Shown: positions 46,411 through 58,312 of the stretch, in pieces
Layout of the letters: every line of letters begins with the position of its first letter
Numbering within the stretch: position 1 is the first letter of the stretch
Source of the DNA: a virus
Lineage: Duplodnaviria; Caudoviricetes
Virus record (IMG/VR): IMGVR_UViG_3300036766_000439
Coordinates: 2,086 to 66,085 of that record
Direction: 5' to 3' (one strand)
DNA: 64,000 nt
Position numbers and translations under genes: made by a program
The notes under the pieces: model-generated
What the model was told of the DNA's origin: nothing
What the model saw: only the letters and a program-made list of their open reading frames with translations
The model's database searches: none

Positions 46411-46544
46411 AAGCCCTGCGCCTCGCGTTCTACTGCTTTAACACCGCCTGGATGTTCCTGGTGTTCCTGCTGGTGTTGATCGTGCTCTGGCCGATGCTGA
46501 ACTGGGAAGAACGAAAGGAAAAAAGTGAGACCGCTAACTATTGA
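46407..46544 (+). CDS. Small membrane peptide
   Basis: AAGGA RBS, one TM segment; ends at the first attC-like site. Confidence 0.45.
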   Translation: MKALRLAFYCFNTAWMFLVFLLVLIVLWPMLNWEERKEKSETANY

Positions 46545-46715
46545 CCAAAAGGCCGCGCGCCTGCACGCCGCGAAGCCCTGGCTGTCGCATGCCGCCGTGA
46601 TGTCTGAGCTTGCCTCTCGCCCAAGGAGAGGCAAGAAAGTGCCCGTAATGAAAACCAGCGAACGGCGCCACCCGTGGCAGGAACGCGCGGACTGTGGCTA
46701 AACGGTCGGTTAGAC
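46532..46715 (-). repeat. Long/degenerate attC-like site (distal end of array)
   Basis: CGCTAAC...GGCCGCGCG-CCTGC pairs with GCAGGAACGCGCGGAC...GTTAGAC; 184 bp with an inner hairpin. Confidence 0.5.
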
Positions 46716-46725
46716 TTCCGATTTT

Positions 46726-47016
46726 ATGACCATCACGATCCAGATAGGTAATACCGACGACAAACTCACGCAGGCCGAATGGTCTGACTTCGTGGCTCTC
46801 GTCCACGACTATATCGAGCGATACGTCGAAGATCGCGCCGCAAGTGTGCATTTCTTCGGCGTGTCGGCCGACTACGAGCGGTGGCAAAATGCGGTGTGGG
46901 TCGTCTTGCTAATGGACGAACAGGAGCCGTCACTGCGCGCTGACATCAGCACCGCACGCCGGAAGTTCCGGCAGGACTCCGCCGCCTGGACAACCGGAGA
47001 AACCTCTTTCGTCTAA
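46726..47016 (+). CDS. Cassette hypothetical protein
   Basis: IGNTDDKLTQAEWS..WQNA; flanked by GTTAGAC/GTCTAAC with its stop inside the R box. Confidence 0.75.
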   Translation: MTITIQIGNTDDKLTQAEWSDFVALVHDYIERYVEDRAASVHFFGVSADYERWQNAVWVVLLMDEQEPSLRADISTARRKFRQDSAAWTTGETSFV

Positions 47017-47100
47017 CTCCAAATATGAGCCAGATGGCCACTCCACCTGATATGAAAACTACAAAAAAACGTGCGCGGAGATCATCTTTCTTTGCCGAAC
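47011..47100. pseudogene. Collapsed cassette remnant
   Basis: attC arm (GTCTAAC-TCCAAA-TATGAGCCA) followed by a copy of 52124-52159 joined to a copy of 52465-52495. Confidence 0.7.
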
Positions 47101-47111
47101 TATTTTCAACT

Positions 47112-47501
47112 ATGCCAATCCCAAAAACACTCAGTCCCCGTCCCGCTCGTTGGCTCTTGCGTCTGTGGGCTAAGGCGTGGCTGGACGGTGAGCCAGCGCC
47201 GCTCGCCTACCAACCGCAGCACCTCTGGAGCGATGGCACATTCGAGATGTGGGCCAACCTCGGCGAACCGACGAGCTCGAAGCGAGTCACGCGCGAGCGG
47301 CTCGCGATATATCTCGCACTCCACCCCGGCGAAAAAGTGCGCGTGCTGAAAATCGTGAGCGCCACCGAGGTGGTCGATGTCACGGATTTTCTGCCGAACG
47401 GCGAGGATGACGCACGGCCGCTCGGGGCCGTTGCGTCTGGCGCGTGGTTGGGAAAGCCCTCTGAAAATCTCACGAAAACAACGAACACCAAAGATGCATG
47501 A
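47112..47501 (+). CDS. Cassette hypothetical protein
   Basis: Reads through attC 47393-47453. Confidence 0.55.
   Translation: MPIPKTLSPRPARWLLRLWAKAWLDGEPAPLAYQPQHLWSDGTFEMWANLGEPTSSKRVTRERLAIYLALHPGEKVRVLKIVSATEVVDVTDFLPNGEDDARPLGAVASGAWLGKPSENLTKTTNTKDA
47393..47453 (-). repeat. attC (short family)
   Basis: Minus strand: TCCCAAC-CACGC-GCCAGACG-CAACGGCC-loop-GGCCGTG-CGTCATC-CTCGCC-GTTCGGC. Confidence 0.85.
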
Positions 47502-48303
47502 GCTGGCACTATTCGCAGGCGCTGGCGGCGGCATACTCGGGGGCAAACTCCTCGGGTGGACTACCGTCTGCGCCGTCGAATGGAATGAATACGCCCGTCG
47601 CGTGCTCCTCGCCCGACAAGACGACGGGAGCCTGCCCGCCTTCCCTATCTGGGACGACGTGCAAACCTTCGACGGACGACCGTGGCGCGGTCTGGTGGAT
47701 GTCGTGTCTGGCGGCTTCCCGTGCCAAGACATCAGCGTGGCCGGAACCGGCAAAGGGCTCGACGGAGAAAAAAGCGGGCTGTGGTCGGAAATGGCCCGAA
47801 TCATTGGCGAGGTGGGACCGCGGCACGTGCTCGTGGAGAACTCGCCAGCTCTCACTTTTCGGGGGGGCACCCGAGTGCTTGGAGACCTTGCCTCGATGGG
47901 GTATGATGCGCGATGGGGAATTGTGGGAGCAACCCACACCGGCGCTCCACACGAAAGGGAGCGCATGTGGATCGTGGCCGACTCTATCCGCGAACGAAGC
48001 GCGGAACGGCTGGCAGGACCGAAGCGGTGCGAAGAAAGGGAAGCAAGAGTCGCTGACGACGGTGCTACAGCGCCAGATGGGGCGGAAAACCGGCGAGCCG
48101 TGGCATGGTGGGCATCTGAACCCAGCGTGGGCCGAATGGTTCATGGGCTGGCCAATCGGATGGACCGACTGCGCTGCACCGGCAATGGACAGTCTCCGCC
48201 AGTGGTGCGACTCGCTTGGCGGCTTCTTTCAACGTCCGAAAACCAAGGAGGCCGCGTAGGGCTTCCCAACGCAGAGCTATCCGATGGCACGGCGAACATC
48301 TAA
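47494..48303 (+). CDS. C5 cytosine DNA methyltransferase (main chain)
   Basis: LFAGAGG (I), GFPCQD (IV), VENS (VI), HERERMW (VIII), GNGQ (X). Confidence 0.9.
   Translation: MHELALFAGAGGGILGGKLLGWTTVCAVEWNEYARRVLLARQDDGSLPAFPIWDDVQTFDGRPWRGLVDVVSGGFPCQDISVAGTGKGLDGEKSGLWSEMARIIGEVGPRHVLVENSPALTFRGGTRVLGDLASMGYDARWGIVGATHTGAPHERERMWIVADSIRERSAERLAGPKRCEEREARVADDGATAPDGAENRRAVAWWASEPSVGRMVHGLANRMDRLRCTGNGQSPPVVRLAWRLLSTSENQGGRVGLPNAELSDGTANI
47498..48259 (+). CDS. Overlapping +1-frame polypeptide carrying C5-MTase motif IX
   Basis: 253-aa ORF nested in the MTase, ending LNPAWAEWFMGWPIGWTD. Confidence 0.6.
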   Translation: MSWHYSQALAAAYSGANSSGGLPSAPSNGMNTPVACSSPDKTTGACPPSLSGTTCKPSTDDRGAVWWMSCLAASRAKTSAWPEPAKGSTEKKAGCGRKWPESLARWDRGTCSWRTRQLSLFGGAPECLETLPRWGMMRDGELWEQPTPALHTKGSACGSWPTLSANEARNGWQDRSGAKKGKQESLTTVLQRQMGRKTGEPWHGGHLNPAWAEWFMGWPIGWTDCAAPAMDSLRQWCDSLGGFFQRPKTKEAA

Positions 48304-48392
48304 GACTATGAGCAAGCCAAAAACTAAACGCAAACCCGCAACAGTCGCAACTGCCGAGGCCAAGTGCCATTCGGATCGGCGATTGGTTGGGT
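48264..48392 (-). repeat. attC
   Basis: TCCCAAC..GCTATCCGATGGCAC...GTGCCATTCGGATCGGC..GTTGGGT. Confidence 0.8.
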
Positions 48393-48703
48393 GCGTCGTT
48401 ACGAAACAGGGCGGCCCAATCCTCAACGAAGGATATGTGTGCGCCGCCGGTGACAATATCGCCGCCATCGAAATAGACATGAAATCAAAGCGGTGTGAGG
48501 TCATGGCCGAATCATCGACGGAAGATGGGGCGCCGGTGATATGGTTAGATGGAACAAACGCGCTGCATCTGAAAAAAGGCCACGAAAAAGAAGAAACAGA
48601 AGTAGCGTTTCCAGACTACAGGGGCTGGCGAATCTTCTCAGCCAATGTCTGCCGATACACCTTCCGCCTATGCTTCGTGCGGGATGAATCGCCTTACAAA
48701 TAA
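48308..48703 (+). CDS. Cassette hypothetical protein
   Basis: ATG in the attC loop (MSKPKTKRK). Confidence 0.65.
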   Translation: MSKPKTKRKPATVATAEAKCHSDRRLVGCVVTKQGGPILNEGYVCAAGDNIAAIEIDMKSKRCEVMAESSTEDGAPVIWLDGTNALHLKKGHEKEETEVAFPDYRGWRIFSANVCRYTFRLCFVRDESPYK

Positions 48704-48787
48704 GATGAGCCACGACCCCGCCACCCTCGACGTGAGCATGTTCCCAACGGCCCCAGCGGGGTCGTTGGCTCTGGCGGCTGGTTCGCC
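48691..48787 (-). repeat. attC (variant R' GTAAGGC)
   Basis: GATGAGCCACGACCCCGC...GCGGGGTCGTTGGCTCTGGC-GGCTG-GTTCGCC. Confidence 0.75.
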
Positions 48788-49067
48788 TCCGTTTCGCGTG
48801 CAGCTATCACGCCGGCGTGGTTGGCGAAAGCCGCCAAACTGCGTTGTGGTCGCGCGCCCGTCCCGATGGGGCAACCCGTGGCGCGTCGGAGAATACGGCT
48901 CCGCTGTCGAATGCGTGGCTCGATACGAGCGTGCGATCCGTGACGGACGATTTACAAACGAGGTGGACGACCTGCGCCAACTGCGTGGGAAAAACCTCGC
49001 GTGCTGGTGTTCTCTTGGGGAGCCGTGTCATGCGGACGTGCTTCTTTCTTTGGCGAACCGGGGATGA
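48705..49067 (+). CDS. DUF4326-like protein
   Basis: RPSRWGNPW...LRGKNLACWC...PCHADVL; start inside the attC (48705 or 48738). Confidence 0.8.
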   Translation: MSHDPATLDVSMFPTAPAGSLALAAGSPPFRVQLSRRRGWRKPPNCVVVARPSRWGNPWRVGEYGSAVECVARYERAIRDGRFTNEVDDLRQLRGKNLACWCSLGEPCHADVLLSLANRG

Positions 49068-49177
49068 GCTACACGGCCCGAAAACCAAATGACTCTATGA
49101 CCACTGAAAATATCCAACCACCCAATACGCTAGCCGAAGCCCCCGATGGCCGTGTTAGCTCTGGCCCCTCGTTAGGC
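49052..49177 (-). repeat. attC
   Basis: GGCGAAC..GATGAGCTACACGGCC...GGCCGTGTTAGCTCTGGC..GTTAGGC. Confidence 0.8.
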
Positions 49178-49555
49178 TCTTTGATCGAATCGCTCGCCTT
49201 TGAGTCCAAGCAGCCGGACAGAGGCTACACGGTCCGCGCAAGCTACCTCAATGAGCCCCGCAAGCAGGACGCGCTAATCGAAATCTTCAAAGACTCTAAA
49301 CCGCTGCGGGCCTTCTTCTTTCCGGCCTACAAGGTATGGAACATCGCCGCACACTTCCGCGACATCGTGGACGGTGAAATCGCCGGTGATAGCAGCGGCT
49401 ACGAAATGGCCGCGTGGGACGGAATCACCAACAGCATAATCCTGCTCCCGCGTGAGCAAGCCCAACGCCTCGGCCAGAGCCACGGCCGCTCGGGGCCGTT
49501 GGCTCTGGCCGAATGTTCGAAATGCCGGCCTCCGACTCTGGAAAATGCCTCCTGA
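49097..49555 (+). CDS. Cassette hypothetical protein
   Basis: ATG in the attC loop; FPAYKVWNIAAHF.DIV; reads through the next attC. Confidence 0.65.
   Translation: MTTENIQPPNTLAEAPDGRVSSGPSLGSLIESLAFESKQPDRGYTVRASYLNEPRKQDALIEIFKDSKPLRAFFFPAYKVWNIAAHFRDIVDGEIAGDSSGYEMAAWDGITNSIILLPREQAQRLGQSHGRSGPLALAECSKCRPPTLENAS
49460..49521 (-). repeat. attC (short family)
   Basis: GCCCAAC..GCCAGAGCCACGGCC-GCTCGG-GGCCGTTGGCTCTGGC..GTTCGAA. Confidence 0.85.
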
Positions 49556-49562
49556 AATATAA

Positions 49563-49615
49563 TGCACAATGTGCAAGAAAAAGCTTGCAATCGTCTGCAC
49601 AACGTGCATAGTCCT
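49563..49615 (+). promoter_or_regulatory. Cassette-internal promoter with two palindromic operators
   Basis: TGCACAATGTGCA (49563) and TGCACAACGTGCA (49596) flank TTGCAA (49585). Confidence 0.6.
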
Positions 49616-49657
49616 AAGTCATGGAGGCAATCAAGCCTCCCCGAAAAAAAATCAAAA

Positions 49658-49915
49658 ATGAACGCTCTGAAATCCACCTACCGCGCCATGAATGCCGTGA
49701 TGCCCTCCGAATGCTTTCTTGCCGACAATATGCCGGTCCCGACGCCCGCCGATAACCTGAAAAAGCACCTCGCGGGTGTAGCCGCTGAGACGCTCGACGA
49801 GATCATTGAGGCCACGGGCTACGCTGCAAACGGGGTCGCGGTCGGATACGATGCCCAGCGCGATGCGGACATCAACTCCGCCGCTCGCCGCGAACTCGCC
49901 CGCCGCCTCGCATGA
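49658..49915 (+). CDS. Hypothetical protein (first gene of two-gene cassette)
   Basis: A-rich leader; ATGA overlap with the HTH gene. Confidence 0.65.
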   Translation: MNALKSTYRAMNAVMPSECFLADNMPVPTPADNLKKHLAGVAAETLDEIIEATGYAANGVAVGYDAQRDADINSAARRELARRLA

Positions 49916-50157
49916 GCTTCGCGGACCAACTCAAAAAGGCCCGCGAAAAAGCGGGCCTCTCCATCGCGGACGCCGCCAAAGGGCGCGGCGTTTCGCCGCG
50001 CACCTGGGCGTATTGGGAAGCCGGCTTGCGGCTCCCGCCAGCCGAGCGGGACGCGATCACGCGGGAGCGTCTTCTTTCGTCGCTCACCAAAGAGCGTTCG
50101 CCCGGTCCGTCGAACACCAGAGATAATCCAGCTGACCGAGCCCCGCGCGATGAATAG
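49912..50157 (+). CDS. XRE HTH protein
   Basis: FADQLKKAREKAGLS..DAA...GVS.RT...WEAG. Confidence 0.85.
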   Translation: MSFADQLKKAREKAGLSIADAAKGRGVSPRTWAYWEAGLRLPPAERDAITRERLLSSLTKERSPGPSNTRDNPADRAPRDE

Positions 50158-50205
50158 CACGCAAAACGAACAATCGGTCAGCTTGGCTTTGGCGACTCGT
50201 TAGGC
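50109..50205 (-). repeat. attC
   Basis: GTCGAAC..CCAGCTGACCGA...TCGGTCAGCTTGG..GTTAGGC. Confidence 0.75.
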
Positions 50206-50234
50206 GTCCGAAAAAATCTCAACCAACACTCAAA

Positions 50235-50810
50235 ATGAACGCATCACTCGAAGGAATAACAGCCGCGAAGCAGATCGCTTCTTCTTATCCGCAAGCAAAC
50301 ATCAACGCCGAAGCCGTCGCGCAACTTATCGACGCGAACTTTGCGCGCGTCCGCGACGCTTTCAACTTCGCGAGAACGCGCGAGGAACTAACCGCGACCT
50401 ACGGCAAGCCGACGCGCACAAGCGCAATCCTCCGAATCGAAATCCGTATCTTGCCGCTGGTGGAAGACCGGCCGGTGCGGAGCACAAAACCTGAAACCTC
50501 ACGATCAGCCGGACAGGGTCTAGCGTCTGGTTCGCCTTTTCGGACGGCACCGGACAGGCAAAAAAAACAAATGCACGGCGCGACCGGAATCTTCCTGCGC
50601 GCCATCGGGCAAGATGGCCGCTGGGGCTCATACGACATGGCCGAACTCGATGCGGACAGCCTGACGGCATGGCTCAAGCTGGACGGCGGCGACAACCCGC
50701 TTGCCGAGAACTGCGTTCGCATCCTCCTCGGACACCCGCAGATTCAGGCGAACGACGCGCTATGCCAGCCCGCACCTGCGGCGCGGCATTCCACGGGCGT
50801 TACCGATTAA
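50235..50810 (+). CDS. Read-through fusion of two cassette ORFs
   Basis: Crosses the degenerate attC 50454-50535; the second part starts MHGATGIF at 50571. Confidence 0.5.
   Translation: MNASLEGITAAKQIASSYPQANINAEAVAQLIDANFARVRDAFNFARTREELTATYGKPTRTSAILRIEIRILPLVEDRPVRSTKPETSRSAGQGLASGSPFRTAPDRQKKQMHGATGIFLRAIGQDGRWGSYDMAELDADSLTAWLKLDGGDNPLAENCVRILLGHPQIQANDALCQPAPAARHSTGVTD
50454..50535 (-). repeat. Degenerate attC, near-identical to 51600-51682
   Basis: About 80-bp direct repeat ending GGGTCTAGCGTCTGGTTC; lacks the AAC box. Confidence 0.65.
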
Positions 50811-50853
50811 ACGGACGCGGCCAATAGGGATTGGCATCAGCAACTTGTTAAGC
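50747..50853 (-). repeat. attC
   Basis: GGCGAAC..GCTATGCCA...TTGGCATCAGC-AACTT-GTTAAGC. Confidence 0.7.
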
Positions 50854-50881
50854 GGCGAACAACGAAAACCAAAAAGAAAAT

Positions 50882-51073
50882 ATGAACGGAGAAACAAAAA
50901 CACTGAATCACGAGCAGTTCCTGCAAACGTATCTGCTCAATCGCGCACTCGCACACGTCGGCGGCCTCGATGCTCCCTACGCGGTGGAAACTGGTGAGGA
51001 AGGCTGGCAGAAAATCCAGCGCATCATCGCCAAAGACCCGAAGAACCAAAACGACAAATCTGGAACCCCCTAA
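50882..51073 (+). CDS. Cassette hypothetical protein
   Basis: Stop TAA inside the CCCTAAC box. Confidence 0.6.
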   Translation: MNGETKTLNHEQFLQTYLLNRALAHVGGLDAPYAVETGEEGWQKIQRIIAKDPKNQNDKSGTP

Positions 51074-51174
51074 CGTTCAAGATGAGCTGACGCGGCGAGC
51101 CGCCCTGAAAAATCCATGAACTCGAAAGCCAACCACGAAGCCCTGTCCGCGTCAGATCGGGCGGCGGGTTCGGC
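51068..51174 (-). repeat. attC, near-identical to 53085-53191
   Basis: GATGAGCTGACGCGG...CCGCGTCAGATCGGGC..GTTCGGC. Confidence 0.85.
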
Positions 51175-51367
51175 GCATAAAACTCCCGAGGGCGTGCTGG
51201 TGTGCGCTCGCTGCAATGCCGAAATGGAGTGGGAAGACTGCTCTGCCTGCGGCGGCGACGGATTCTTCGCCGGCCACGAGGAAGACCCGAACTGGTATCA
51301 TCCGGGCGAACTGGTGGCCTGCCGCCAGTGCGGCGGAACTGGCGGCGCCGGACATGGGAATTTATGA
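51116..51367 (+). CDS. Cassette Zn-finger (CxxCxGxG) protein
   Basis: CSACGGDG, CRQCGGTG; ATG in the attC loop; possibly truncated. Confidence 0.65.
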   Translation: MNSKANHEALSASDRAAGSAHKTPEGVLVCARCNAEMEWEDCSACGGDGFFAGHEEDPNWYHPGELVACRQCGGTGGAGHGNL

Positions 51368-51567
51368 AGCCTGAACTCGAAGCGAATAATACAAATGCGC
51401 CAAGCGGCGTTCTGCTCCGCCCGGTTGTTGGGTCGGCGAAACTGGAGCGTATAGACGATGCAATTCAGCGGCTGAGAAAAGGCATCGCGGAATGCAATGA
51501 GCGGATCTATGAAAAAGCCTTGGCCGACTTTGGAAATGAAACCAAGGACGGGAACGCCGGCCAATAA
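51364..51567 (+). CDS. Cassette hypothetical protein
   Basis: Starts in a half attC that ends GTTGGGT at 51433. Confidence 0.5.
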   Translation: MKPELEANNTNAPSGVLLRPVVGSAKLERIDDAIQRLRKGIAECNERIYEKALADFGNETKDGNAGQ

Positions 51568-51572
51568 ATTTC

Positions 51573-51836
51573 ATGCGCACAAACCAAAAACCCCCCGCCC
51601 CGCTGGTGGAAGACTGGCCGGTGCGGAGCGCAAAACCTGAAACCTCACGATCAGCCGGACAGGGTCTAGCGTCTGGTTCTGGTCTGTCTTTCTCGAAAAA
51701 TAATCCCGACAAGCGCACCGGCTACTGGTGCGGAGATTGTGGCCACGCGATGCGCTACAACGTGCCGCGGCTTGGGCCTGCTGGCGGTTTCGTCCACGCC
51801 GCCACTTCCAGCCTTCGGTGTGGAGCGCCAGCATAA
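51573..51836 (+). CDS. Cassette hypothetical protein
   Basis: N-terminus encoded by degenerate attC 51600-51682; CGDC..RYNVPRLG. Confidence 0.55.
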   Translation: MRTNQKPPAPLVEDWPVRSAKPETSRSAGQGLASGSGLSFSKNNPDKRTGYWCGDCGHAMRYNVPRLGPAGGFVHAATSSLRCGAPA

Positions 51837-51851
51837 TAACCGAAAAACAAA

Positions 51852-52133
51852 ATGAGCAAAGACCCACTCCATATCTACCTTGCGAAAGAGCGCGCCAATG
51901 GCGCATATAGCTTCTTGCTGCGCGTCCAACCGCCGCGCTACATCGGCGACACCGAAGTGCGCTTCGCGATCCACCCCGAGCTGCAATCGGGCGAGACGAA
52001 TGACTACTCGGTTAGCGAAGACCCGGAGCGGCGCGATGCAGACTTCCTCTACAACCTCGCGGCGGCCCCCGATCCGGATATCGAGAAATTTCTCGCGACG
52101 CTGCGCGATCTCCGGCTTCCACACTCCACCTGA
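51852..52133 (+). CDS. Hypothetical protein
   Basis: A-rich leader, 93 aa. Confidence 0.6.
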   Translation: MSKDPLHIYLAKERANGAYSFLLRVQPPRYIGDTEVRFAIHPELQSGETNDYSVSEDPERRDADFLYNLAAAPDPDIEKFLATLRDLRLPHST

Positions 52134-52134
52134 T

Positions 52135-52488: not shown

Positions 52489-52612
52489 GCCGAACGTCGC
52501 GTATCAGCCAGTCGGCGGGGAAGCCTCAACCAAATCGAAATCCAATGAACGAAAATCCTGAATCTTCAAATCGCGTGCCCGTAGCCGGCCTGGCTGGGGC
52601 GATTTGTTCGGC
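52489..52612 (-). repeat. attC
   Basis: GCCGAAC..TATCAGCCAGTCGGC...GCCGGCCTGGCTGGGGC..GTTCGGC. Confidence 0.75.
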
Positions 52613-52805
52613 TCTTATCTGTGCCGCACTGACAATCGGCGTGGCGCTTTGCGCTTTCGGAGTGATTCCGTGGCCAAGCGAAGCGTCCTTCAAATGGTGG
52701 TGCGCCGCCCATGTGATTTCTTTCACGGCTGGACTGCACGCTACACGGTCCTTGCCAAACGACCAAGCTCAAGCACGCCGGACTGGGGGCGTGGATTGCA
52801 AGTGA
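52545..52805 (+). CDS. Cassette membrane protein
   Basis: ATG in the attC loop; two hydrophobic segments. Confidence 0.6.
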   Translation: MNENPESSNRVPVAGLAGAICSALICAALTIGVALCAFGVIPWPSEASFKWWCAAHVISFTAGLHATRSLPNDQAQARRTGGVDCK

Positions 52806-52842
52806 GACGCTATCCGGCGTTGCTTGCAGCGCATGGTTAGGC
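52754..52842 (-). repeat. attC
   Basis: Minus strand: GCCTAAC-CATGC-GCTGCAAGCAACGCCGGA...TCCGGCGTGCTTGAGC-TTGGTC-GTTTGGC. Confidence 0.9.
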
Positions 52843-52856
52843 CACAACGAAAATCT

Positions 52857-53090
52857 ATGACTGACAAATTCACAGGCAAACCAATTGATAAACTATCTGA
52901 CCGCTTGCCGCATCCGAACGGCGGACGCTGCGAAACCTGCGGCACTGAAACAATAGACCACTGCCCGGTGTGCCGTGCGCCTCAATGCTGCCCAAGCTGC
53001 TGCGCCGATGCGATGACGGAAGGCACGCGCCAAGACAGCGAACAGGCTGCAAGGTCTGGCCTCGCACACACGCACGCCTATGTGGCCTAA
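52857..53090 (+). CDS. Cassette Cys-rich protein
   Basis: CETC..CPVC..CCPSCC; stop in GCCTAAC. Confidence 0.65.
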   Translation: MTDKFTGKPIDKLSDRLPHPNGGRCETCGTETIDHCPVCRAPQCCPSCCADAMTEGTRQDSEQAARSGLAHTHAYVA

Positions 53091-53191
53091 CGAAAAAGAT
53101 GAGCTGACGCGGCGAGCCGCCCTGAAAAATCCATGAACTCGAAAGCAAACCACGAAGCCCTGTCCGCGTCAGCTCGGGCGGCAGGTTCGGC
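53085..53191 (-). repeat. attC, near-identical to 51068-51174
   Basis: Three substitutions after the first spacer; encodes a 25-aa leader peptide (53133-53210). Confidence 0.85.
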
Positions 53192-53206
53192 AGGCTTGGA
53201 AAAAAC

Positions 53207-53581
53207 ATGAATACAAAAACAGCAAGAGAACTTCTCGGCATAGTCGAAAGCGAGTGCCCGGAAGTCGCCGAAGGAAATGCGCGTGAAATTATCCGCGGTG
53301 CATTCACGGAATCGCCATCGTGGGCTCTCCGGGTTCGGCGCGGCGTCCCGCTAATCGAGCACGCGGTGACCCCGGTCGGTGCCGATGATCCGTGGATAGA
53401 GGCCACCGTATCCGTGGAAAGATTCTTCCGGCATGAAATGTGGGAAATCTACGAAAAAGAACTCGATGACGCCGCAAAGGTGAGGCTCGCGAAAACCCTT
53501 GAGCGGGCTGCGAAACGCATCCGCGCGACTTTGCCCAACACCGTGGTCAGAGACGGCCCGCTCGGGGGCCGTTCTCTGTAG
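53207..53581 (+). CDS. Cassette hypothetical protein (duplicate of 7600 ORF core)
   Basis: See repeat 7632-7958. Confidence 0.7.
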   Translation: MNTKTARELLGIVESECPEVAEGNAREIIRGAFTESPSWALRVRRGVPLIEHAVTPVGADDPWIEATVSVERFFRHEMWEIYEKELDDAAKVRLAKTLERAAKRIRATLPNTVVRDGPLGGRSL

Positions 53582-53594
53582 CACTTGGTTGGGC
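53533..53594 (-). repeat. attC (short family)
   Basis: GCCCAAC..GGTCAGAGACGGCCC-loop-GGGCCGTTCTCTGTAGC..GTTGGGC. Confidence 0.85.
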
Positions 53595-53620
53595 CTCCGA
53601 TTTTCAACTCAAAAACCACA

Positions 53621-53884
53621 ATGAAATACCGAAAGAAACCTGCAGTAATCGAAGCCATGCTCTTCACGGCTGAAACGCTGGATGAATGCGTGGCCTTCTG
53701 CGGCGGTAACTACGAATACCGCAACGCATCGTGCCCCGCTCCGCACGGCGAAGTCATCGAAATCAAAACGCTCGAAGGCGTGATGATGGCAACGCCGGGC
53801 GACTGGATCATCAAGGGCGTGAAGGGCGAGTTCTACCCGTGCAAACCAGACATCTTCGCCGCCACCTACGAGGCCGTTCTTTGA
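53621..53884 (+). CDS. Conserved phage protein (PGDYG-like)
   Basis: MKYRKKP.VIEA...TLEG.M.A..GDWIIKGVKGEFYPCKPDIF..TYE. Confidence 0.85.
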   Translation: MKYRKKPAVIEAMLFTAETLDECVAFCGGNYEYRNASCPAPHGEVIEIKTLEGVMMATPGDWIIKGVKGEFYPCKPDIFAATYEAVL

Positions 53885-53888
53885 ATTG

Positions 53889-54003
53889 TCCCAACGCCAA
53901 GGTCAGCGAATCCGCCACATGAACGTCTCTGCCACATACGCTCTTAACCTGACGCCATCGACCGAGGACGGACGGGCGGATTCGCTGTGCCGCCTGGTTC
54001 AGC
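53889..54003 (-). repeat. attC
   Basis: TCCCAAC..GTCAGCGAATCCGCC...GGCGGATTCGCTGTGC..GTTCAGC. Confidence 0.8.
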
Positions 54004-54013
54004 TTTTCTCAAA

Positions 54014-54256
54014 ATGCACGCATACCTAAACAACCAGCGCAATCGCGAGCTGGAAAAGCTCACGCCCGCGATGTGGCGGATGCTTTTCGACATCCGCGAC
54101 CACGACGACCCAGGATATTCGCTGCGCGGAATGTCCGCGCACGGTGGCGCGAGTGGCACAAGCGCCGCGCTCCGCAAACGCGGACTGATGATCGGCGACA
54201 AACTCACCGCTCTCGGCTCCGCCGTGACCTACGTCGAATGGCGCGGCGCTTTCTAA
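54014..54256 (+). CDS. Cassette hypothetical protein (wHTH-like)
   Basis: ALRKRGL....LTALG. Confidence 0.6.
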   Translation: MHAYLNNQRNRELEKLTPAMWRMLFDIRDHDDPGYSLRGMSAHGGASGTSAALRKRGLMIGDKLTALGSAVTYVEWRGAF

Positions 54257-54361
54257 ACTGAACGACCAAGCTGAGCGACCGGAATGAGCGCGCTAGAGAC
54301 ATCCAATTGCAACGACGACGTGGCCGCGCTCAGTCCGGTTCGCTCCAGCGCGTGGTTAGCA
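54257..54361 (-). repeat. attC
   Basis: Minus strand: TGCTAAC-CACGC-GCTGGAGC-GAACCGGA...TCCGGTC-GCTCAGC-TTGGTC-GTTCAGT; textbook layout. Confidence 0.9.
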
Positions 54362-54392
54362 CGTCCGGCCTTTTGCGTCCGAAAAGAAATGC

Positions 54393-54420
54393 TTGCAATA
54401 ACCCAACGCTCGGTTATTGT
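54393..54420 (+). promoter_or_regulatory. Cassette-internal promoter overlapped by inverted repeat
   Basis: TTGCAA-16-TATTGT with CAATAACC-N8-GGTTATTG. Confidence 0.6.
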
Positions 54421-54428
54421 GGCGGCGC

Positions 54429-54740
54429 ATGAAAACAACCAAACTCGAAATGGGCCTGATGAAACTTCAGGCGGAAACGCCTGCCGAATCTCAGGCAATC
54501 TGCGGCATCATCGAAATGAACTCAAAGCTGATGCCTGCCGCAGTGGTCAACAACCACGGCTGTCGGCAGGTCGGGAAAAAATACCTGAACTGGTGTCTCA
54601 TCCCCGATGGTCACTTGGATGGAACGTGCCGCAAGAAACACCTGGAAGGCGACGGGTGCGACTGCCTGAAAGACGGCATCAAAGCGGGACTCAAGAAATG
54701 GGGCAAGCTGCCGTGGAACTACGTCTTCAAACGCGCATGA
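54429..54740 (+). CDS. Hypothetical protein (first gene of two-gene cassette)
   Basis: Cys/His-containing, 103 aa. Confidence 0.65.
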   Translation: MKTTKLEMGLMKLQAETPAESQAICGIIEMNSKLMPAAVVNNHGCRQVGKKYLNWCLIPDGHLDGTCRKKHLEGDGCDCLKDGIKAGLKKWGKLPWNYVFKRA

Positions 54741-54883
54741 AAAAGAAGAACTCAGCGGCGGTCGCACTCGGCAAAATGCGGAGTGCGGCGAAAGCTAAAG
54801 CAGCGAGAGAGAACGGGCAGCTTGGAGGCCGTCCGAAAACCAAGCGCGTGACCCGGCGTGCTAACGCAAAGCTCACGCCATGA
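54737..54883 (+). CDS. Small basic putative DNA-binding peptide
   Basis: AAVALGK..SAAKAKAARENGQLGGRPK motif. Confidence 0.65.
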   Translation: MKKKNSAAVALGKMRSAAKAKAARENGQLGGRPKTKRVTRRANAKLTP

Positions 54884-54959
54884 CTACCGCGCCCACACGC
54901 TCCGACCTCGCTAATGACTCCCACGCGGTAGTCATTGAGCGTGGAGCGTCTTGTTCGAC
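54859..54959 (-). repeat. attC
   Basis: TGCTAAC..GCTCACGC-CATGACTACCGCG...CGCGGTAGTCATTG-AGCGTGGAGC..GTTCGAC. Confidence 0.85.
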
Positions 54960-55212
54960 GTTGGCGCGGCACGAATGGCAAACCTGCGAAATCGAGGACT
55001 GCGACGAATGCCAATGGCTCGTCGATTGGGGGATGGTGATGGCGTGCGACCACTGCGGTAGCCCCGGAATGGTGGACTGCGACGGCTGGGTAATGCACGA
55101 ACCGTGGCTGTCTGATGGCGCGTGCGTCTGTATCGGTTGCAGCGCCCAAATCGAGGCGGCATTCAATTCGTCGAACGCTAAAGTTCAGACACGAGCGGAG
55201 GACAAACTATGA
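54880..55212 (+). CDS. Cassette Cys-rich protein
   Basis: ATG in the attC stem; several CxxC motifs. Confidence 0.65.
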   Translation: MTTAPTRSDLANDSHAVVIERGASCSTLARHEWQTCEIEDCDECQWLVDWGMVMACDHCGSPGMVDCDGWVMHEPWLSDGACVCIGCSAQIEAAFNSSNAKVQTRAEDKL

Positions 55213-55261
55213 AAAACAAAAAGAGCGCAGCCCGCTCGTTGTCTGTGGCGGCGGGTTCGGC
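55170..55261 (-). repeat. attC carrying SD and ATG
   Basis: GTCGAAC..CAGACACGAGCGG-AGGACAAACTATG...CCGCTCGTTGTCTG..GTTCGGC. Confidence 0.85.
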
Positions 55262-55457
55262 ATGGCTCCACTGGGGCTACTCAAAGGAGCTTGGGAAATA
55301 CTATGCAATAATCCAAGAAAGGGATCGCGCACACGCGCTAATAATCTCAGACGATAGTATCAATTGGCGACGCGCGAGCCCACGCGAAACGTGGCAGCCG
55401 TGTAGGATTGACGCCGGCAAAATACTTCCTATTCTTCCGCTTTCGCGGGCGATGTGA
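55209..55457 (+). CDS. Cassette hypothetical protein
   Basis: GGAGG-N6-ATG located inside the attC. Confidence 0.65.
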   Translation: MKNKKSAARSLSVAAGSAWLHWGYSKELGKYYAIIQERDRAHALIISDDSINWRRASPRETWQPCRIDAGKILPILPLSRAM

Positions 55458-55459
55458 AA

Positions 55460-55572
55460 GCCGAACGAAAAGCTCTCGCGCCCTGCCGCCGAATAAAAAT
55501 GGACTCACTCTTGCAAATGGACTTTGAACAACCCGCGAGCGCGGCAGGGTTGCGAGCAGCGCCGGGTTCGGC
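55460..55572 (-). repeat. attC
   Basis: GCCGAAC..GCTCTCGCGCCCTGCCGC...GCGGCAGGGTTGCGAGCAGC..GTTCGGC. Confidence 0.85.
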
Positions 55573-56056
55573 GTCAGTGCTGGACGTGTGCTGCGGGAGT
55601 CGGATGTTCTGGTTCGACCGCAAGAATCCGGCCGCAATCTTCTTGGACAAGCGCCGCGAGAGACACCTGGCCGCTGACTGCTCGGTGAAGAACGGCGAGC
55701 GGGAAATCGTGATAGACCCCGACATCGTTGCGGACTTCACAGACCTGCCGTTCGACGACAACACCTTCGCGCACGTCATCTTCGACCCGCCGCACATCCA
55801 GCGGAATGGTGATACGAGCTGGCTGCTCAAAAAGTATGGAGTCCTGCGCGGTGACTGGCGCGCGATGCTGCGCCTCGGCTTCGCTGAATGCTTCCGCGTC
55901 CTGAAACCCGAAGGCACGCTCATTTTCAAGTGGAACGAAATCGAAGTGCCGCTGCGCGAAATCCTCGCGCTGACTCCGGTGCAGCCGCTCTACGGACACC
56001 GCACCGGGAGGCAGGCGAAAACGCACTGGTGCGCGTTCCTGAAGCCGAACAAATAA
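55499..56056 (+). CDS. Amino (N6A/N4C) DNA methyltransferase-like
   Basis: VLDVCCGSRMFWFD, FDPPH, ECFRVLKP.GTLIFKW. Confidence 0.8.
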   Translation: MDSLLQMDFEQPASAAGLRAAPGSASVLDVCCGSRMFWFDRKNPAAIFLDKRRERHLAADCSVKNGEREIVIDPDIVADFTDLPFDDNTFAHVIFDPPHIQRNGDTSWLLKKYGVLRGDWRAMLRLGFAECFRVLKPEGTLIFKWNEIEVPLREILALTPVQPLYGHRTGRQAKTHWCAFLKPNK

Positions 56057-56140
56057 GATGACACAGATGCCCGCTCTCCCTGATGCTACTACCGCTGGAA
56101 ACGTCCCAGCGGGCATCTTGTGTCTGGCGCCTGGTTCTCC
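56044..56140 (-). repeat. attC
   Basis: GCCGAAC..GATGACACAGATGCCCGCT...AGCGGGCATCTTGTGTCTGGC..GTTCTCC. Confidence 0.85.
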
Positions 56141-56606
56141 ATCCGGGACGCACCAGAATCAACTGCCGCCGGCCGCCAACAAATTCCACGTCGGCAACGG
56201 ATCCGACGGCAAGCACTACTGGCTCACGCCGCCGGTGCTGATGGCCGAACTGCAATCCGAATTTGCGTTCGACTTCGACCCATGCCCCTGCCCGAAGCCG
56301 GAAGGCTTCGACGGACTGACGTGCGAATGGGGGCAATCGAACTACGTGAATCCCCCGTTTGGATCCATCATGCACGAGGGGAAAAAGAAAGGTCCGACTG
56401 CGTGGGCAAGGAAGGCGATCTTGGAGCACCGGAAGGGCAAAAAAGTGGTGCTCGTATATCCCATCGACAAATGGGTGCTGATGCTGCTCGCGGCTGGAGC
56501 GAAGGTGCGGAACCTCGGCGATGTCCGTTGGTGCGCGACCGAAGACGGCTCACAGGGCAAAGGCACCGGTCGGCACATCGCCGCCTTTATCTTGGAGAAC
56601 GAATAG
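56058..56606 (+). CDS. Phage Dam-like N6-adenine methyltransferase
   Basis: WLTP...FDFDPC, DGL..EW, YVNPPF. Confidence 0.8.
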   Translation: MTQMPALPDATTAGNVPAGILCLAPGSPSGTHQNQLPPAANKFHVGNGSDGKHYWLTPPVLMAELQSEFAFDFDPCPCPKPEGFDGLTCEWGQSNYVNPPFGSIMHEGKKKGPTAWARKAILEHRKGKKVVLVYPIDKWVLMLLAAGAKVRNLGDVRWCATEDGSQGKGTGRHIAAFILENE

Positions 56607-56684
56607 CTCTGATATGCCGCCTCAAGAGTCATCCCAAATTACGAGAGACGCGATGGCGGCATTATCAGCAGCGCATGGTTCGAG
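56594..56684 (-). repeat. attC
   Basis: GGAGAAC..GCTCTGATATGCCGCC...GGCGGCATTATCAGCAGC..GTTCGAG. Confidence 0.85.
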
Positions 56685-57048
56685 GACTTTCATGTATCGC
56701 ATCGCAGCAAAACACTCCACCGTCCTCGGCTACGGAGCAACCTCGCAGATGGGTAAAAAACTGTGGGCCTCGCTGGTGTGGGCTGGCGCGCGAAAGGATG
56801 GCGGCGCGCACATGATGAATCCAACCGGCGGCGAATACCTGCACGTCCGCGTGAAGCCAGTTGCGGACGGGTGCTGGTATCGCGTCCGATGCTCGCACTA
56901 CATCGGCAGCCAATGGCGCGGCGGCGTGGTGCAAAAGATCGCGCTGAAACAAAAAGGAGGCAGGTGGCACTGGCGCGTCACTGTGTCCTCGAACATTGGA
57001 CATGAGCCGCGTGCGGGCGAATCACCCTCGATGCCGAGCGCAGAATAA
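56614..57048 (+). CDS. Cassette hypothetical protein
   Basis: ATG in the attC stem; GGEYLHV...YRVRC. Confidence 0.6.
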   Translation: MPPQESSQITRDAMAALSAAHGSRTFMYRIAAKHSTVLGYGATSQMGKKLWASLVWAGARKDGGAHMMNPTGGEYLHVRVKPVADGCWYRVRCSHYIGSQWRGGVVQKIALKQKGGRWHWRVTVSSNIGHEPRAGESPSMPSAE

Positions 57049-57099
57049 ATAACCGAATCACCCCCAGCCCCGCACGTTGGCTCTGGGGACTGGTTAGGC
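56988..57099 (-). repeat. attC (first cassette next to attI)
   Basis: CTCGAAC..CATGAGCCGCGTGCGGG...CCCGCACGTTGGCTCTGG..GTTAGGC. Confidence 0.85.
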
Positions 57100-57108
57100 T
57101 CCGATTTT

Positions 57109-57321
57109 ATGACCCACGAACCAATCAAAATCCACGAATACGAAATCACGGAAGAGCAGATCGCGAACCTAGCGACGGAGTTCTTCGGCACCGTCGTCTA
57201 TCCGGCGGGCAACCACCAAACGGCTCATCTCTCTTTTACGGGCCAGCCGGACACATCCCGCGAAGAACTGCGGGCTCAATTCATGCGCGCTCTCGCGTGC
57301 TACAAACGGGCTTCTGCCTAA
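57109..57321 (+). CDS. Cassette hypothetical protein (attI-proximal)
   Basis: Stop TAA inside GCCTAAC of the attI junction. Confidence 0.7.
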   Translation: MTHEPIKIHEYEITEEQIANLATEFFGTVVYPAGNHQTAHLSFTGQPDTSREELRAQFMRALACYKRASA

Positions 57322-57350
57322 CAGGTGATTAACTAGAACAAAATCTATCT
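57316..57350 (-). other. attI-like primary integration site
   Basis: Minus strand ...GTTCTAGTTAATCACCT-GTTAGGC; non-palindromic, AT-rich, immediately 5' of intI; R box complementary to the first cassette's R''. Confidence 0.65.
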
Positions 57351-57355
57351 ATCAA

Positions 57356-58312
57356 ATGTCCGAAAAAGACGCCATTCAACGCTTTGTCGCTTTCATGCGG
57401 CTAAAACACTGGGCACTCACCACGGAGCGCAGTTACGTCGCGTGGGCGCACAAATACACGGCGTTCGTCAAGCGCGGGACTTGCGGCAGATCGTCCTCGG
57501 AAGAAAAGGTGCGGGCCTACCTCGAATCTATCGCACCGCATTGCGCGGCCAAGACGCAGAATCAATGCCTAAACGCTCTGGTCGTTTTCTACCGCGAGGG
57601 CATCGGCACTCCGCTAGGCAAGCTCGGTGCGTGGTCCTACGCCAAACGCCCGCAGCGCATCCCGGAATATGTCGATGTGGCGGACGCCAAGCGCATCCTC
57701 GCGCTGATTCCCGGCACACATGGACTGATGGCTTCACTGCTTTTTGGCAGCGGACTGCGACTCATGGAGTGCGTCAGGCTGCGCGTGAAAGACTGCGACG
57801 TGAAAAACCGCGCGCTGTTCATCCGGGGCGGCAAGGGGAACAAAGACCGCGTGGTGAATCTGCCGGTGTCGCTCGTCGCACCGCTCACCGCCCATCTTGA
57901 ACGAGTCAAGGCCCTATGGACCGGCGATCAAGCCAATGGGCACCCGCCGATTCAACTACCGACAGAAGGGCTTGACCGCAAGTTTCCCAACGGCGGAAAA
58001 CAGTGGCCGTGGTTCTGGGTCTTTCCTGGCAAGGGGCTTTCGCGCGACCCACGCAGCGGCATCTATCGCCGTCACCATACCCACGAGAATGGGCTGCAAA
58101 AGGCCGTCACCAAGGCTGCACAGGTGGCAGGTATCGGCAAGCGGGTTTCCTGTCACACGCTTCGCCACGGCTATATCACGGCGCTGGTTCAGGCGGGCGA
58201 AGATATTTCCAAAGTGCAGGCGTTGGCCGGTCACAAGCATATCGCCACCACCCAAATCTACATTCACATCGCCCCGAAGGCCGTCGCCTCGGTCAAAAGC
58301 CCGCTGGATTAA
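57356..58312 (+). CDS. intI: Integron integrase (IntI family tyrosine recombinase)
   Basis: TERSY..W N-domain; GSGLRLMEC.RLRVKD, GGKGNKDR, HTLRH, GH, TTQIY; integron-specific insert WPWFWVFP...SRDPRSG..RRHH. Confidence 0.93.
   Translation: MSEKDAIQRFVAFMRLKHWALTTERSYVAWAHKYTAFVKRGTCGRSSSEEKVRAYLESIAPHCAAKTQNQCLNALVVFYREGIGTPLGKLGAWSYAKRPQRIPEYVDVADAKRILALIPGTHGLMASLLFGSGLRLMECVRLRVKDCDVKNRALFIRGGKGNKDRVVNLPVSLVAPLTAHLERVKALWTGDQANGHPPIQLPTEGLDRKFPNGGKQWPWFWVFPGKGLSRDPRSGIYRRHHTHENGLQKAVTKAAQVAGIGKRVSCHTLRHGYITALVQAGEDISKVQALAGHKHIATTQIYIHIAPKAVASVKSPLD

Follow-up and report, generated by a model that had tools for sequence, protein, structure and literature searches.

The window analysed here is a stretch of 64,000 nucleotides from a tailed phage (Caudoviricetes; IMG/VR record IMGVR_UViG_3300036766_000439, positions 2,086 to 66,085). 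It carries a complete integron consisting of the integrase gene intI, the site attI and a main array of about 25 attC sites and about 24 cassettes (46659-57322), in which the minus strand is the attC top strand and all ORFs are on the plus strand. All cassette genes are located on the strand opposite to that used in described integrons. The array reported in the initial annotation was confirmed as such, but its start lies near 46.66-46.69 kb and not at 46532. In addition, a satellite array without an integrase is located at 7597-9294 (attC top strand plus, ORFs minus), with attC sites at 9189-9294, about 8952-9026, 8684-8751 and about 7967-8010 and a half-site at 7597-7637.

The intI gene (57356-58312, plus strand) encodes an integron integrase of 318 aa with the domains PF13495 and PF00589. 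It is the final plus-strand gene, and convergent minus-strand genes lie beyond it. In a profile search the ORF reached 312.4 bits with the integron integrase model TIGR02249 (cut-off 265), versus about 107 bits each with the XerC and XerD models. Between its catalytic halves the enzyme has the region specific to IntI. VchIntIA (2A3V) is the best solved relative (E 1.9e-58) and could be aligned end to end and without gaps (IntI 12-317 on 11-317), whereas Xer structures align at 4-183 or 253-309 only. IntI also clusters with integron integrases in a 60-row quick tree. Profiles, structural relatives and tree place the enzyme, as initially proposed, among the integron integrases and not with Xer.

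Directly adjoining the 5′ end of intI, the attI site (57316-57355, plus strand) comprises the crossover box GCCTAAC (57316-57322) followed by 33 nt to the intI ATG, in agreement with the attI-like site proposed 34 bp upstream of the integrase. At 57093 the last attC, that of the first cassette counted from attI, carries the b-box GTTAGGC, whose reverse complement is this box (4/4), and the crossover falls in the same triplet. A GCCTAAC box at an equal distance 5′ of intI was found in five relatives (L085, L005, L006, L007 and L013). The near-identical integrons L005 and L007 have the same sequence on the right side of AAC and diverge to the left of it, exactly at attI.

The attC sites span 46.7-57.1 kb. 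About 20 palindromes had been noted as attC before; about 25 sites were now counted, of which 16 show the textbook geometry of R box, 5-nt spacer, 3-bp L box, extra base, 6-bp stem, extra T and stem. In these 16 sites 12-13 of 13 positions pair in the canonical register, and 14 of the 25 also have an AAC 7-10 nt upstream. Outside the arrays, canonical pairing occurs at 22 of 1467 GTT sites, and together with AAC at one of 1467. The boxes RYYYAAC and GTTRRRY (R′′/R′), the L box, an unpaired spacer and extrahelical bases on one arm were all found. When the window was scored with a weight matrix for the conserved 3′ arm, 24 matches of at least 14 bits were obtained on the plus strand at 47.4-57.1 kb and three on the minus strand at 7973-8958, compared to only six matches of 9-12 bits in the rest of the window. 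Using a scanner with a score threshold of at least 20, nine sites were detected at 46-57.4 kb, none in 9.5-44 kb and none in 30 shuffles.

All sites of the main array have their top strand on the minus strand. Starting from attI, full pairing (13/13) was observed at 56988-57099 (R′ CTCGAAC and R′′ GTTAGGC, read on the plus strand), 56594-56684 and 52754-52842 (both with the pattern MMM3MMMMMM3), 56044-56140, 55460-55572, 55170-55261 (weak L box), 49052-49177 and 48691-48787. The last of these has the crossover triplet TAC instead of AAC and is probably immobile. Twelve of 13 pairs are formed at 54257-54361 (scanner score 33), 53533-53594, 52489-52612, 50109-50205, 49460-49521 (scanner score 30), 48264-48392 and 47393-47453, the attC of the C5-methylase cassette. 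The site at 54859-54959 carries three extra bases on the plus-strand 3′ arm, and that at 53889-54003 has a long loop. Two variants, 53085-53191 (perfect 12-bp stem, 51-nt loop) and 51069-51174, are near-copies of each other. Nine of the 25 sites show wear, most of them in the left half of the array. Pairing is weaker at 50747-50853 (9/13 pairs), and worn or atypical sites, some of them without an a-box, lie within 50454-52190 (3′ arms at 50530, 51427, 51676 and 52184; 8-10/13 pairs). At the left end of the array (46686-47170) there are a partial site, whose b-box GTTAGAC is at 46709, a decayed site and the crossover box GTCTAAC (47011-47017).

The polarity of the sites was calibrated with 30 control attCs from ordinary integrons and the same scanner. 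In the controls, the extra bases lie on the 5′ arm of the cassette-sense strand in 26 of 30 cases, with four ties and no reverse case. In the array they are found on the plus-strand 3′ arm in eight of nine scanner sites, the ninth showing this arm by hand alignment only, as the scanner itself scored the opposite arm. The array pattern MMM3MMMMMM3 mirrors MMM5MMMMMM5 of the controls, and by attC geometry the plus strand is the recombined "bottom" strand. Parts of a published description of the bottom strand give R′ as 5′-RYYYAAC, extra bases near L′′ at positions 16 and 23/24, 6 bp apart, and a spacer of 5-6 nt (PMC5027507). An independent covariance model, trained on 18 ordinary (proteobacterial) attCs, also prefers the minus strand at its best match, 53533-53594 (19.1 bits, E 0.015, versus 9.8 bits on the plus strand); the model is weak on this array, with one match at E<0.1 and four at E<10 among about 25 sites. 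The previously assigned minus-strand polarity of the top strands is thereby retained.

Cassette mobility was assessed by the complementarity of cassette ends and by array variation between relatives. The outer box of a site complements the crossover box of the next site, where its own cassette ends, with a mean of 3.13/4 (4/4 in 11 of 23 pairs), compared to a mean of 1.95/4 for the boxes of the same site (4/4 in 3 of 22); in a permutation test, none of 20,000 permutations was as good. For natural variation, a single low-depth Logan contig from another sample and study (X2; 244 nt, depth 2.6) joins 46887-47014 to 55464-55579 with the AAC in common, the joint between 47014 and 55464 lying exactly within the triplet. 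Its left partner is the box at 47011-47017 and its right partner the site at 55460-55572. Positions 27-550 and 711-847 of L005 are about 80% identical at the nucleotide level to 47429-47952 and 48134-48270, and this similarity stops at the cassette boundary and at the attI of L005. The C5-methylase cassette is adjacent to attI in L005 and at another array position in the window. Furthermore, L006:401-590 is 75% identical to positions 8317-8128 of the satellite array, and a 99% identical cassette body is present in both arrays of the window. Two internal duplications were found (7627-7958/53214-53545 and 47039-47100/52122-52495). Both end at a crossover box on the right side only, with non-canonical left ends and differing neighbouring attCs, an arrangement not accounted for by simple excision and insertion of cassettes. 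The natural array variant in X2 and the cassette shared with L005 back the earlier reading as a gene-shuffling device.

The integron could also be a frozen relic, in which IntI no longer moves the cassettes and these are now fixed phage genes. The nine poorly paired sites, the TAC triplet and the decayed b-boxes at 47164 and 52184 would fit this, as would the many ORF ends that depend on neighbouring attC sequence, which would penalise movement. However, IntI is full length and gap-free on VchIntIA, the ten attI-nearest cassettes all keep an end-complementarity of 3/4 or 4/4, and the clean AAC-to-AAC joint, the divergence of L005 and L007 exactly at attI and the cassette body common to both arrays likewise speak against it. 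The relic is considered unlikely, and a working or recently working tailed-phage integron, with its genes on the bottom strand and read towards intI, is very probable.

The coding strand was determined from family matches, codon-position composition and ORF length. Six plus-strand ORFs of the array have family matches, whereas none of the ten longest minus-strand ORFs is above the cut-off. They encode a C-5 cytosine DNA methylase (47494-48303; PF00145, 2.7e-27), a DUF4326 protein (48705-49067; PF14216, 2e-24), an HTH regulator (49912-50157; PF13560, 1.4e-8), a protein of the phage family phrog_419 (53621-53884; 8.1e-34), a SAM-methyltransferase-like protein (55499-56056; PF08241, 9.5e-5, 23.4 bits, cut-off 21.2) and a DNA methyltransferase (56058-56606; phrog_111, 8.2e-13; Dam weak). 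GC1/2/3 is.61/.49/.66 in 26 plus-strand ORFs,.62/.57/.62 in 16 minus-strand ORFs and.62/.44/.75 in reference genes, and the AT skew is positive over 44-58 kb. By the longest-ORF rule the plus strand was called in seven of eight window intervals, versus the minus strand in all nine control arrays upstream of intI with a call. The ATG of many ORFs falls within the attC of the same cassette, in its 5′ arm or loop, and the ORF of one cassette usually reads across the crossover to end, no more than a few codons later, in the spacer of the following attC. The AAC (once TAC) is in frame in 13 of 14 boundary-crossing ORFs, and four more ORFs stop at a TAA inside the box. In the 5′ arm of attC 56044-56140, for example, AAC AAA TAA G ATG contains the stop of the upstream ORF and the start of the next. 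Every supported ORF is thus on the plus strand, antisense to attC and co-oriented with intI, as first described. None of the three checks that could have overturned the initial reading (attC strand, integrase family and coding strand) did so. The cargo of three or four DNA methyltransferases, the DUF4326 protein, the HTH regulator and small phage-type ORFs suggests an accessory gene store, possibly with a predicted role in anti-restriction.

These data bear on a second explanation, an ordinary bacterial chromosomal integron, acquired by the phage or mis-binned, with true genes on the minus strand and the plus-strand ORFs as artefacts of high GC content. GC-rich DNA does yield long spurious ORFs on both strands, known complete phage integrons are mostly host-derived pieces according to the parts of PMC9892861 covered, and the closest IntI retrieved (81%) is encoded on a contig binned as an Opitutus MAG. 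This explanation is contradicted on the coding strand, as family matches occur on the plus strand only and codon-position GC and base composition fit the sense strand of the phage's own genes. Moreover, the satellite array sits inside the phage recombination-gene operon and has the same gene/attC relation as the main array. The 66-kb record (CheckV completeness 100) also contains a portal gene (PF23899 SU10_portal, 48.7 bits, cut-off 30, 5.3e-13) and genes for a helicase, an exonuclease, a RecT-like protein and a primase/helicase; capsid matches are weak only, and no terminase was identified on the record. Three other IMG/VR contigs with the same attC motif encode IntI homologues. A bacterial origin with minus-strand genes is accordingly rated as very improbable. 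In other viral contigs with the motif, 10 ORF calls fell on the motif strand and 21 on the opposite one, by a crude longest-ORF count; a second heuristic gave no clean separation of the controls.

That the hairpins serve as regulatory structures in RNA or DNA (terminators or translational operators) beside a coincidental integrase and have nothing to do with recombination, as the start and stop codons held by many of them might indicate, can hardly be upheld as the sole explanation, since it is contradicted by the exact attC geometry with the extra T at position 23 and the 6-bp stem, by outer boxes complementing the cassette far end and by natural variants joined at AAC, and terminator-like sites are at background level (26 versus 23.6 +/- 3.7). 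As the hairpins would fold in mRNA too, they may plausibly act in translation as well as in recombination.

For the phage integron with bottom-strand genes, IntI would recombine folded attC hairpins and the attI that precedes its start codon by 33 nt. As in ordinary integrons, the crossover lies in the AAC triplet of the intI sense strand. Each cassette gene is located on the recombined strand, so that a cassette reads "attC, then gene" and not "gene, then attC". With the cassettes reversed in this way, the whole array becomes co-linear with the plus-strand gene block of the phage (44.1-58.3 kb). The attC sites seem to act additionally as junction modules between ORFs. Read-through from upstream towards intI is most likely, rather than a Pc promoter beside attI, and gene order would suggest transcription from the far end (near 44.2 kb) together with putative internal promoters. 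A promoter scan revealed no enrichment (7 versus 5.5 +/- 2.5 in shuffles), and the transcription route is a prediction. IntI may still be active, and the function of the cargo is likewise predicted.

Compared with canonical integrons (class 1 mobile and sedentary chromosomal, Proteobacteria), the window has in common a TIGR02249 IntI, an attI adjoining the 5′ end of intI, R/L-box attC hairpins with 5/5-6-nt spacers and extra bases at positions 16 and 23, 6 bp apart, a crossover in the AAC on the intI-sense strand and complementary cassette ends. In canonical cassettes, however, the attC top strand also carries the ORF, and expression is driven by Pc beside attI, whereas the supported ORFs of the window are on the bottom strand, point towards attI and intI, and often start in their own attC and end in the next. 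The gene-on-top-strand orientation of cassettes is termed essential in the parts of PMC5027507 considered. Phage integrons and CALINs (Qi et al., 2023; PMC9892861), in the parts covered, resemble the window in having integron parts in phages and DNA methyltransferases in the cargo; complete ones are host-derived (Vibrio, class 1 in P1, a Shewanella prophage) and CALINs are small. Reversed gene/attC polarity is not mentioned in the main-text parts covered of this source. In the literature, no paper describing a polarity with genes on the bottom strand was found.

The inverted integron-integrase group (Treponema and others) shares with the window the co-direction of intI and cassette genes, as does Virus Rctr41k (KX853513), a viral record whose IntI reaches 383 bits and whose six attCs obey the end rule. 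In Rctr41k, the array lies 3′ of intI and its genes occupy the top strand of attC. In the window, intI (plus) and the attC top strands (minus) run in opposite directions and the array precedes intI, as it does in the controls, so that the platform is ordinary, only the genes are reversed, and the integron falls outside the inverted group. Single reversed cassettes with their own promoter, e.g., toxin-antitoxin cassettes in Vibrio superintegrons, also carry a gene antisense to attC and are exceptions within arrays of ordinary polarity. In the phage, by contrast, the whole array, the second array and the related integrons are all reversed.

Together, the array of about 25 attC sites at 46659-57322 and the integrase gene that follows it form a genuine phage-borne integron, which is orthodox in its recombination platform but has its cassette genes reversed. 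The ORF at 57356-58312 (+) contains a SAM-like N-terminal domain and a catalytic domain and was assigned to the NCBIfam model TIGR02249 "integron integrase" with 312.4 bits (cut-off 265), compared with around 107 bits for the XerC/XerD models. Among solved structures, VchIntIA (2A3V, E 1.9e-58) is its best relative, and the two align over residues 12-317 against 11-317 without large gaps; alignments of Xer structures to the window IntI are limited to its two ends. The IntI-type integrase proposed in the initial annotation was thereby confirmed, as was the attI-like site placed just upstream of it. The attI box GCCTAAC is located at 57316-57322, 33 nt upstream of the intI ATG, and the same kind of box lies at the same distance before intI in five contigs with related integrons (L085, L005, L006, L007 and L013), including L085, which is binned as Opitutus and encodes an IntI 81% identical to that of the window. 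L005 and L007 are identical from the AAC onwards and unrelated before it, which locates the attI crossover.

On the + strand, a recurrent 3′ arm was found that ends roughly in CG-T-TGGCTC-T-GGC-GnCTG-GTTmGGC. The window was scanned with a weight matrix built from 18 such arms, resulting in 24 matches of at least 14 bits at 47.4-57.1 kb, every one on the + strand, three minus-strand matches at 7973-8958, and only six further matches, of 9-12 bits, in the rest of the window. Moving inward from its outer GTT end, the arm consists of the 7-nt box, a 5-nt spacer, a 3-nt L″ (RGC), a pyrimidine left unpaired at position 16, a run of six paired bases, a T at position 23 that is again unpaired, and further stem. 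For 16 of the 25 sites, one uninterrupted upstream 13-mer pairs with the 6 + 7 bases around T23 at 12-13 of its 13 positions, and in 14 of the 25 this 13-mer sits 7-10 nt past an xxxxAAC box. For the 1467 GTT triplets outside the arrays, which served as background, 22 reach 12/13 and one of them also has the AAC. The roughly 20 attC-like palindromes described from the sequence alone are thus borne out by 24 matrix matches and by 16 sites in the canonical pairing register. In the part of the published description considered here, the attC bottom strand has an R′ box 5′-RYYYAAC, extrahelical bases near L″ at positions 16 and 23/24 with a 6-bp stem between them, and a spacer of 5-6 nt (PMC5027507), which is the geometry of the window sites on the + strand.

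An Rfam search matched no family, with no attC model among the matches listed. An energy-based hairpin search was dropped due to many false positives in the GC-rich DNA, and a scanner was used instead that takes AAC...GTT anchors with a free spacer of 3-8 nt, aligns the anchored arms and records which arm carries the unpaired extra bases. As controls, 25 loci of class 1 and betaproteobacterial chromosomal integrons were read on the cassette-sense strand, giving 30 distinct sites. The extra bases are on the 5′ arm in 26 of these and on the 3′ arm in none, with four ties; the typical pattern is MMM5MMMMMM5 with spacers of 5 and 6. On the + strand of the window, nine sites scoring at least 20 were detected at 46-57.4 kb, compared with none in 30 shuffles and none at 9.5-44 kb. 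In eight of the nine, it is the 3′ arm that carries the extra bases, usually as MMM3MMMMMM3 with spacers of 5-6 and 5, and in the ninth (56048-56136) the unpaired T23 is placed on the 3′ arm too by hand alignment. The + strand, the sense of intI and of the ORFs, is therefore the bottom strand.

A covariance model (R1) was built from 18 control attCs in top-strand orientation; it is weak, with a sensitivity too low for counting sites. Its best match is the minus strand of 53533-53594 with 19.1 bits (E 0.015), compared with 9.8 bits for the + strand of the same site, followed by 52758-52838 (minus, 13.7 bits) and 54268-54349 (minus, 9.5 bits), and a satellite-array site at 8687-8748 was matched on the + strand with 10.0 bits. 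The polarity originally claimed for the attC sites, canonical on the minus strand, holds in the comparison with the 30 control sites, and the weak covariance model agrees on the strand. Ordinary integrons share the window's relation of intI, attI and attC, the intI-sense strand being the bottom strand in control arrays upstream of intI. In contrast, their ORFs are on the other strand in all nine such arrays where the longest-ORF rule decided.

The coding strand of the array was assessed by family matches and composition. Among the + ORFs, matches were obtained to a C5 DNA methylase (2.7e-27), DUF4326 (2e-24), HTH_31 (1.4e-8), phrog_419 (8.1e-34), the DNA methyltransferase phrog_111 (8.2e-13) and Methyltransf_11 (just above its cut-off). 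None of the ten longest minus-strand ORFs of the array reaches a Pfam cut-off. The codon-position GC of the 26 + ORFs is.61/.49/.66, with GC3 exceeding GC2 in 24 of them, and resembles that of the confident genes of the phage (.62/.44/.75); for 16 minus ORFs it is.62/.57/.62. About 20 of the 26 + ORFs are without a family match, so that + coding of every ORF rests on composition and position, not on homology. The claim that the ORFs are on the + strand was accordingly upheld, for six by family match and for about 20 by composition and position. Two cassettes contain promoter-like stretches of the type TTGCAA ... TAnnnT (49556-49660 and 54380-54430). The first of these also has two palindromes of the TGCACA-N-TGTGCA type, just upstream of an ORF pair with an HTH regulator (49912-50157), and this cassette may be self-regulated. 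A promoter and terminator scan gave counts at background level.

The reading frames meet the recombination sites in a regular manner. For 13 of the 14 boundary-crossing + ORFs at 46.7-57.3 kb, the crossover triplet is in frame as a codon (AAC, once TAC), and these ORFs stop 1-33 codons further on, inside the next attC. Four more + ORFs end at the TAA within a box of the NNNTAAC type. Several attC 5′ arms read AAC-AAA-TAA-G-ATG, i.e., the stop of the upstream ORF followed by a start, and for ORFs such as 48705-49067 and 56058-56606 the predicted start falls within the attC 5′ arm, with the frame continuing across the hairpin. Judged from the sequence, the cassette junctions look frame-locked.

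In an integron, the outer four R″ bases should complement the far end of their own cassette, and not necessarily the other box of their own hairpin, because both cassette ends meet in the circular form. Across 23 consecutive site pairs, the match to the next site has a mean of 3.13/4 and is perfect in 11 pairs, including the last seven junctions and the attI junction, compared with a mean of 1.95/4 and perfect matches in 3/22 for the own site. In a permutation test, neither the observed total nor the observed count of perfect pairs was attained in 20,000 permutations. Furthermore, sequences matching intI and several cassettes at 99-100% identity were found in a sediment metagenome run (X2) from another sample and study. 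In a single low-depth contig of this run (244 nt, depth 2.6), 46887-47014 is joined directly to 55464-55579. Since the AAC letters fit both sides, the crossover triplets of GTCTAAC (47011-47017) and GCCGAAC (55460-55466) contain the joint, which leaves out 8,449 nt, or around 20 cassettes. In L005, whose IntI is about 50% identical, the attI-adjacent cassette is about 80% identical to the C5-methylase cassette of the window, and the likeness ends at 48270, a cassette boundary. L006 contains a homologue of one satellite-array cassette. A further population variant has its breakpoint outside any AAC box, at a position preceding the array: contigs of runs X1 and X2 alike follow the window as far as 46585, beyond which they share one sequence unrelated to it.

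The phage character of the parent IMG/VR record (66,085 nt, CheckV completeness 100, terminal repeats absent), of which the window covers bases 2086-66085, is supported by an SU10-type portal gene at 14885-17215 (PF23899, 48.7 bits, cut-off 30), weak capsid matches (2077-3585), a helicase (phrog_16, 1.5e-65), an exonuclease (5.8e-25), a RecT/Bet-like annealing protein (1.2e-19) and a DnaB/primase-like protein (8.3e-16). No terminase was identified on the record, and no match was obtained when GenBank phages were searched with the portal protein. The host probably belongs to the Opitutaceae. Every plausible gene at about 44.1-58.3 kb lies on the + strand, in a region of positive AT skew (0.14-0.33); the skew is negative in the blocks carrying minus-strand genes. 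Among the latter are two giant ORFs of 1999 and 1437 aa (17232-23231 and 26727-31040), both without a PHROG match, and glycosyltransferase-like genes at 34509-39905, with a family 9 heptosyltransferase domain (1.4e-12) and matches to PHROG glycosyltransferases. At 30-121, ARAGORN predicts a tRNA-like gene for which it gives the anticodon as undetermined, with two bases (tt).

The satellite array at 7.6-9.3 kb comprises four attC sites and a half-site in a minus-strand operon downstream of the helicase, and its ORFs are on the bottom-reading strand, as in the main array. It lies in the same minus-strand gene block as the exonuclease and RecT/Bet-like genes (11666-14681), downstream of them. Two internal duplications were detected. 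In the first, two copies of a 332-nt ORF body (7627-7958 and 53214-53545) share 99% identity, with the crossover box GCCCAAC as right end and left ends 14 and 27 nt past two differing upstream attCs. The second relates 47039-47100 to 52122-52151 plus 52465-52495, and what distinguishes the pair is a stretch of 313 nt bordered by an 8-nt direct repeat; its right end is GCCGAAC, its left end falls at no recognisable site, and here too the attCs to the left differ. The exonuclease and RecT/Bet-like genes provide the phage with its own single-strand annealing recombination system, which is a possible source of these irregular duplications or of folded single strands. Excision and insertion of whole cassettes leave the left ends unexplained. 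A secondary AAC site (CAAAAAC) or a decayed internal attC was rejected as the origin of the left ends, the internal motif at 53333 misfitting the geometry.

The reversed arrangement extends to relatives. L006 (TIGR02249, 333 bits) has + ORFs upstream of intI, one with a PAPS-reductase domain (7.8e-8), and bottom-type attCs on the + strand, with the end rule kept at two of three junctions, and L013 has a + strand DUF3307 ORF (3e-9). In contrast, the equally distant L008 (49%) is an ordinary integron with eight sites and ORFs on the other strand in six of seven intervals. In an IntI tree (quick search of 60 hand-picked rows from 142 distinct IntI, SH-aLRT support only, midpoint root, no Xer outgroup), the window clade and the L005/L006/L007 clade are on one side of a 96% SH-aLRT branch and all six integrons tested as ordinary are on the other. 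The close IntI relatives P0002-P0009 are 72-81% identical. L085 extends only 76 nt upstream of intI, and none of its eight neighbour genes has a Pfam match. No close relative was found in the viral contigs scanned with the window IntI. The conserved arm is matched exactly in fourteen further IMG/VR contigs, where the arrays reach up to 10 sites, and three of these contigs encode IntI homologues. For ORF orientation in viral contigs with the motif, a crude longest-ORF count, which is biased against ORFs starting within attC, gave 10 on the strand of the motif and 21 on the opposite one; a second heuristic failed to separate the controls.

As far as covered by the part of Qi et al. (2023, PMC9892861) considered, phages carrying integrons and attC clusters are already known. 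Virus Rctr41k (KX853513) encodes an IntI (383 bits) with six attCs downstream and genes on the top strand, the "inverted integrase" solution, whereas the window genes are on the bottom strand. At 4680-10100 of KX853513, the gene annotated as "xerD integrase-like" is in fact an integron integrase, and the attCs obey the cassette-end rule. In the part of PMC4889954 considered, the inverted-integrase group is defined by an intI oriented as attC, which the window intI is not. A full-text literature search outside subscription journals and supplements revealed no paper on arrays with genes on the attC bottom strand.

With intI, attI, attC sites, + ORFs and phage genes in place, the initial claim of a complete integron in a phage with all cassettes inverted is substantiated. 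That the array is transcribed from its distal end, is active at present and serves counter-defence is inferred. Each attC hairpin, at the 5′ end of its own gene, would act as a plug-in junction supplying the stop of the upstream gene in the AAC frame, the start codon of its own gene and sometimes an N-terminal peptide, and through such a stop/start junction cassettes would enter the phage operon frame-compatibly. Expression would proceed by read-through towards intI without the Pc promoter of ordinary integrons, and the array would stock anti-restriction genes, and others for counter-defence, in exchangeable form. The reading as a whole, a phage-resident integron lineage with turned cassettes, plug-in attC junctions, read-through expression and an exchangeable counter-defence store, is put forward tentatively and judged to fall somewhat short of probable.

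By a founding rule of integron biology, the integrase picks the attC bottom strand so that promoterless genes sit correctly oriented behind Pc. Here the recombination machinery looks entirely orthodox, and yet all genes occupy the opposite strand; the control of orientation through strand choice would therefore serve a different expression logic, namely co-linearity with the phage operon, in which the integrase gene comes last and the newest cassette lies at the greatest distance from the promoter. The array is also a natural test of the capacity of attC sites for coding and translational signals, and its reversal bears on the origin of cassettes. In practice, any survey that takes ordinary polarity for granted will mis-annotate such cassettes. 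The finding points to exchangeable gene banks maintained by phages themselves, the present one being rich in DNA methyltransferases. The phage array proposed here would be the counter-defence counterpart of bacterial integrons stocked with anti-phage defence systems.
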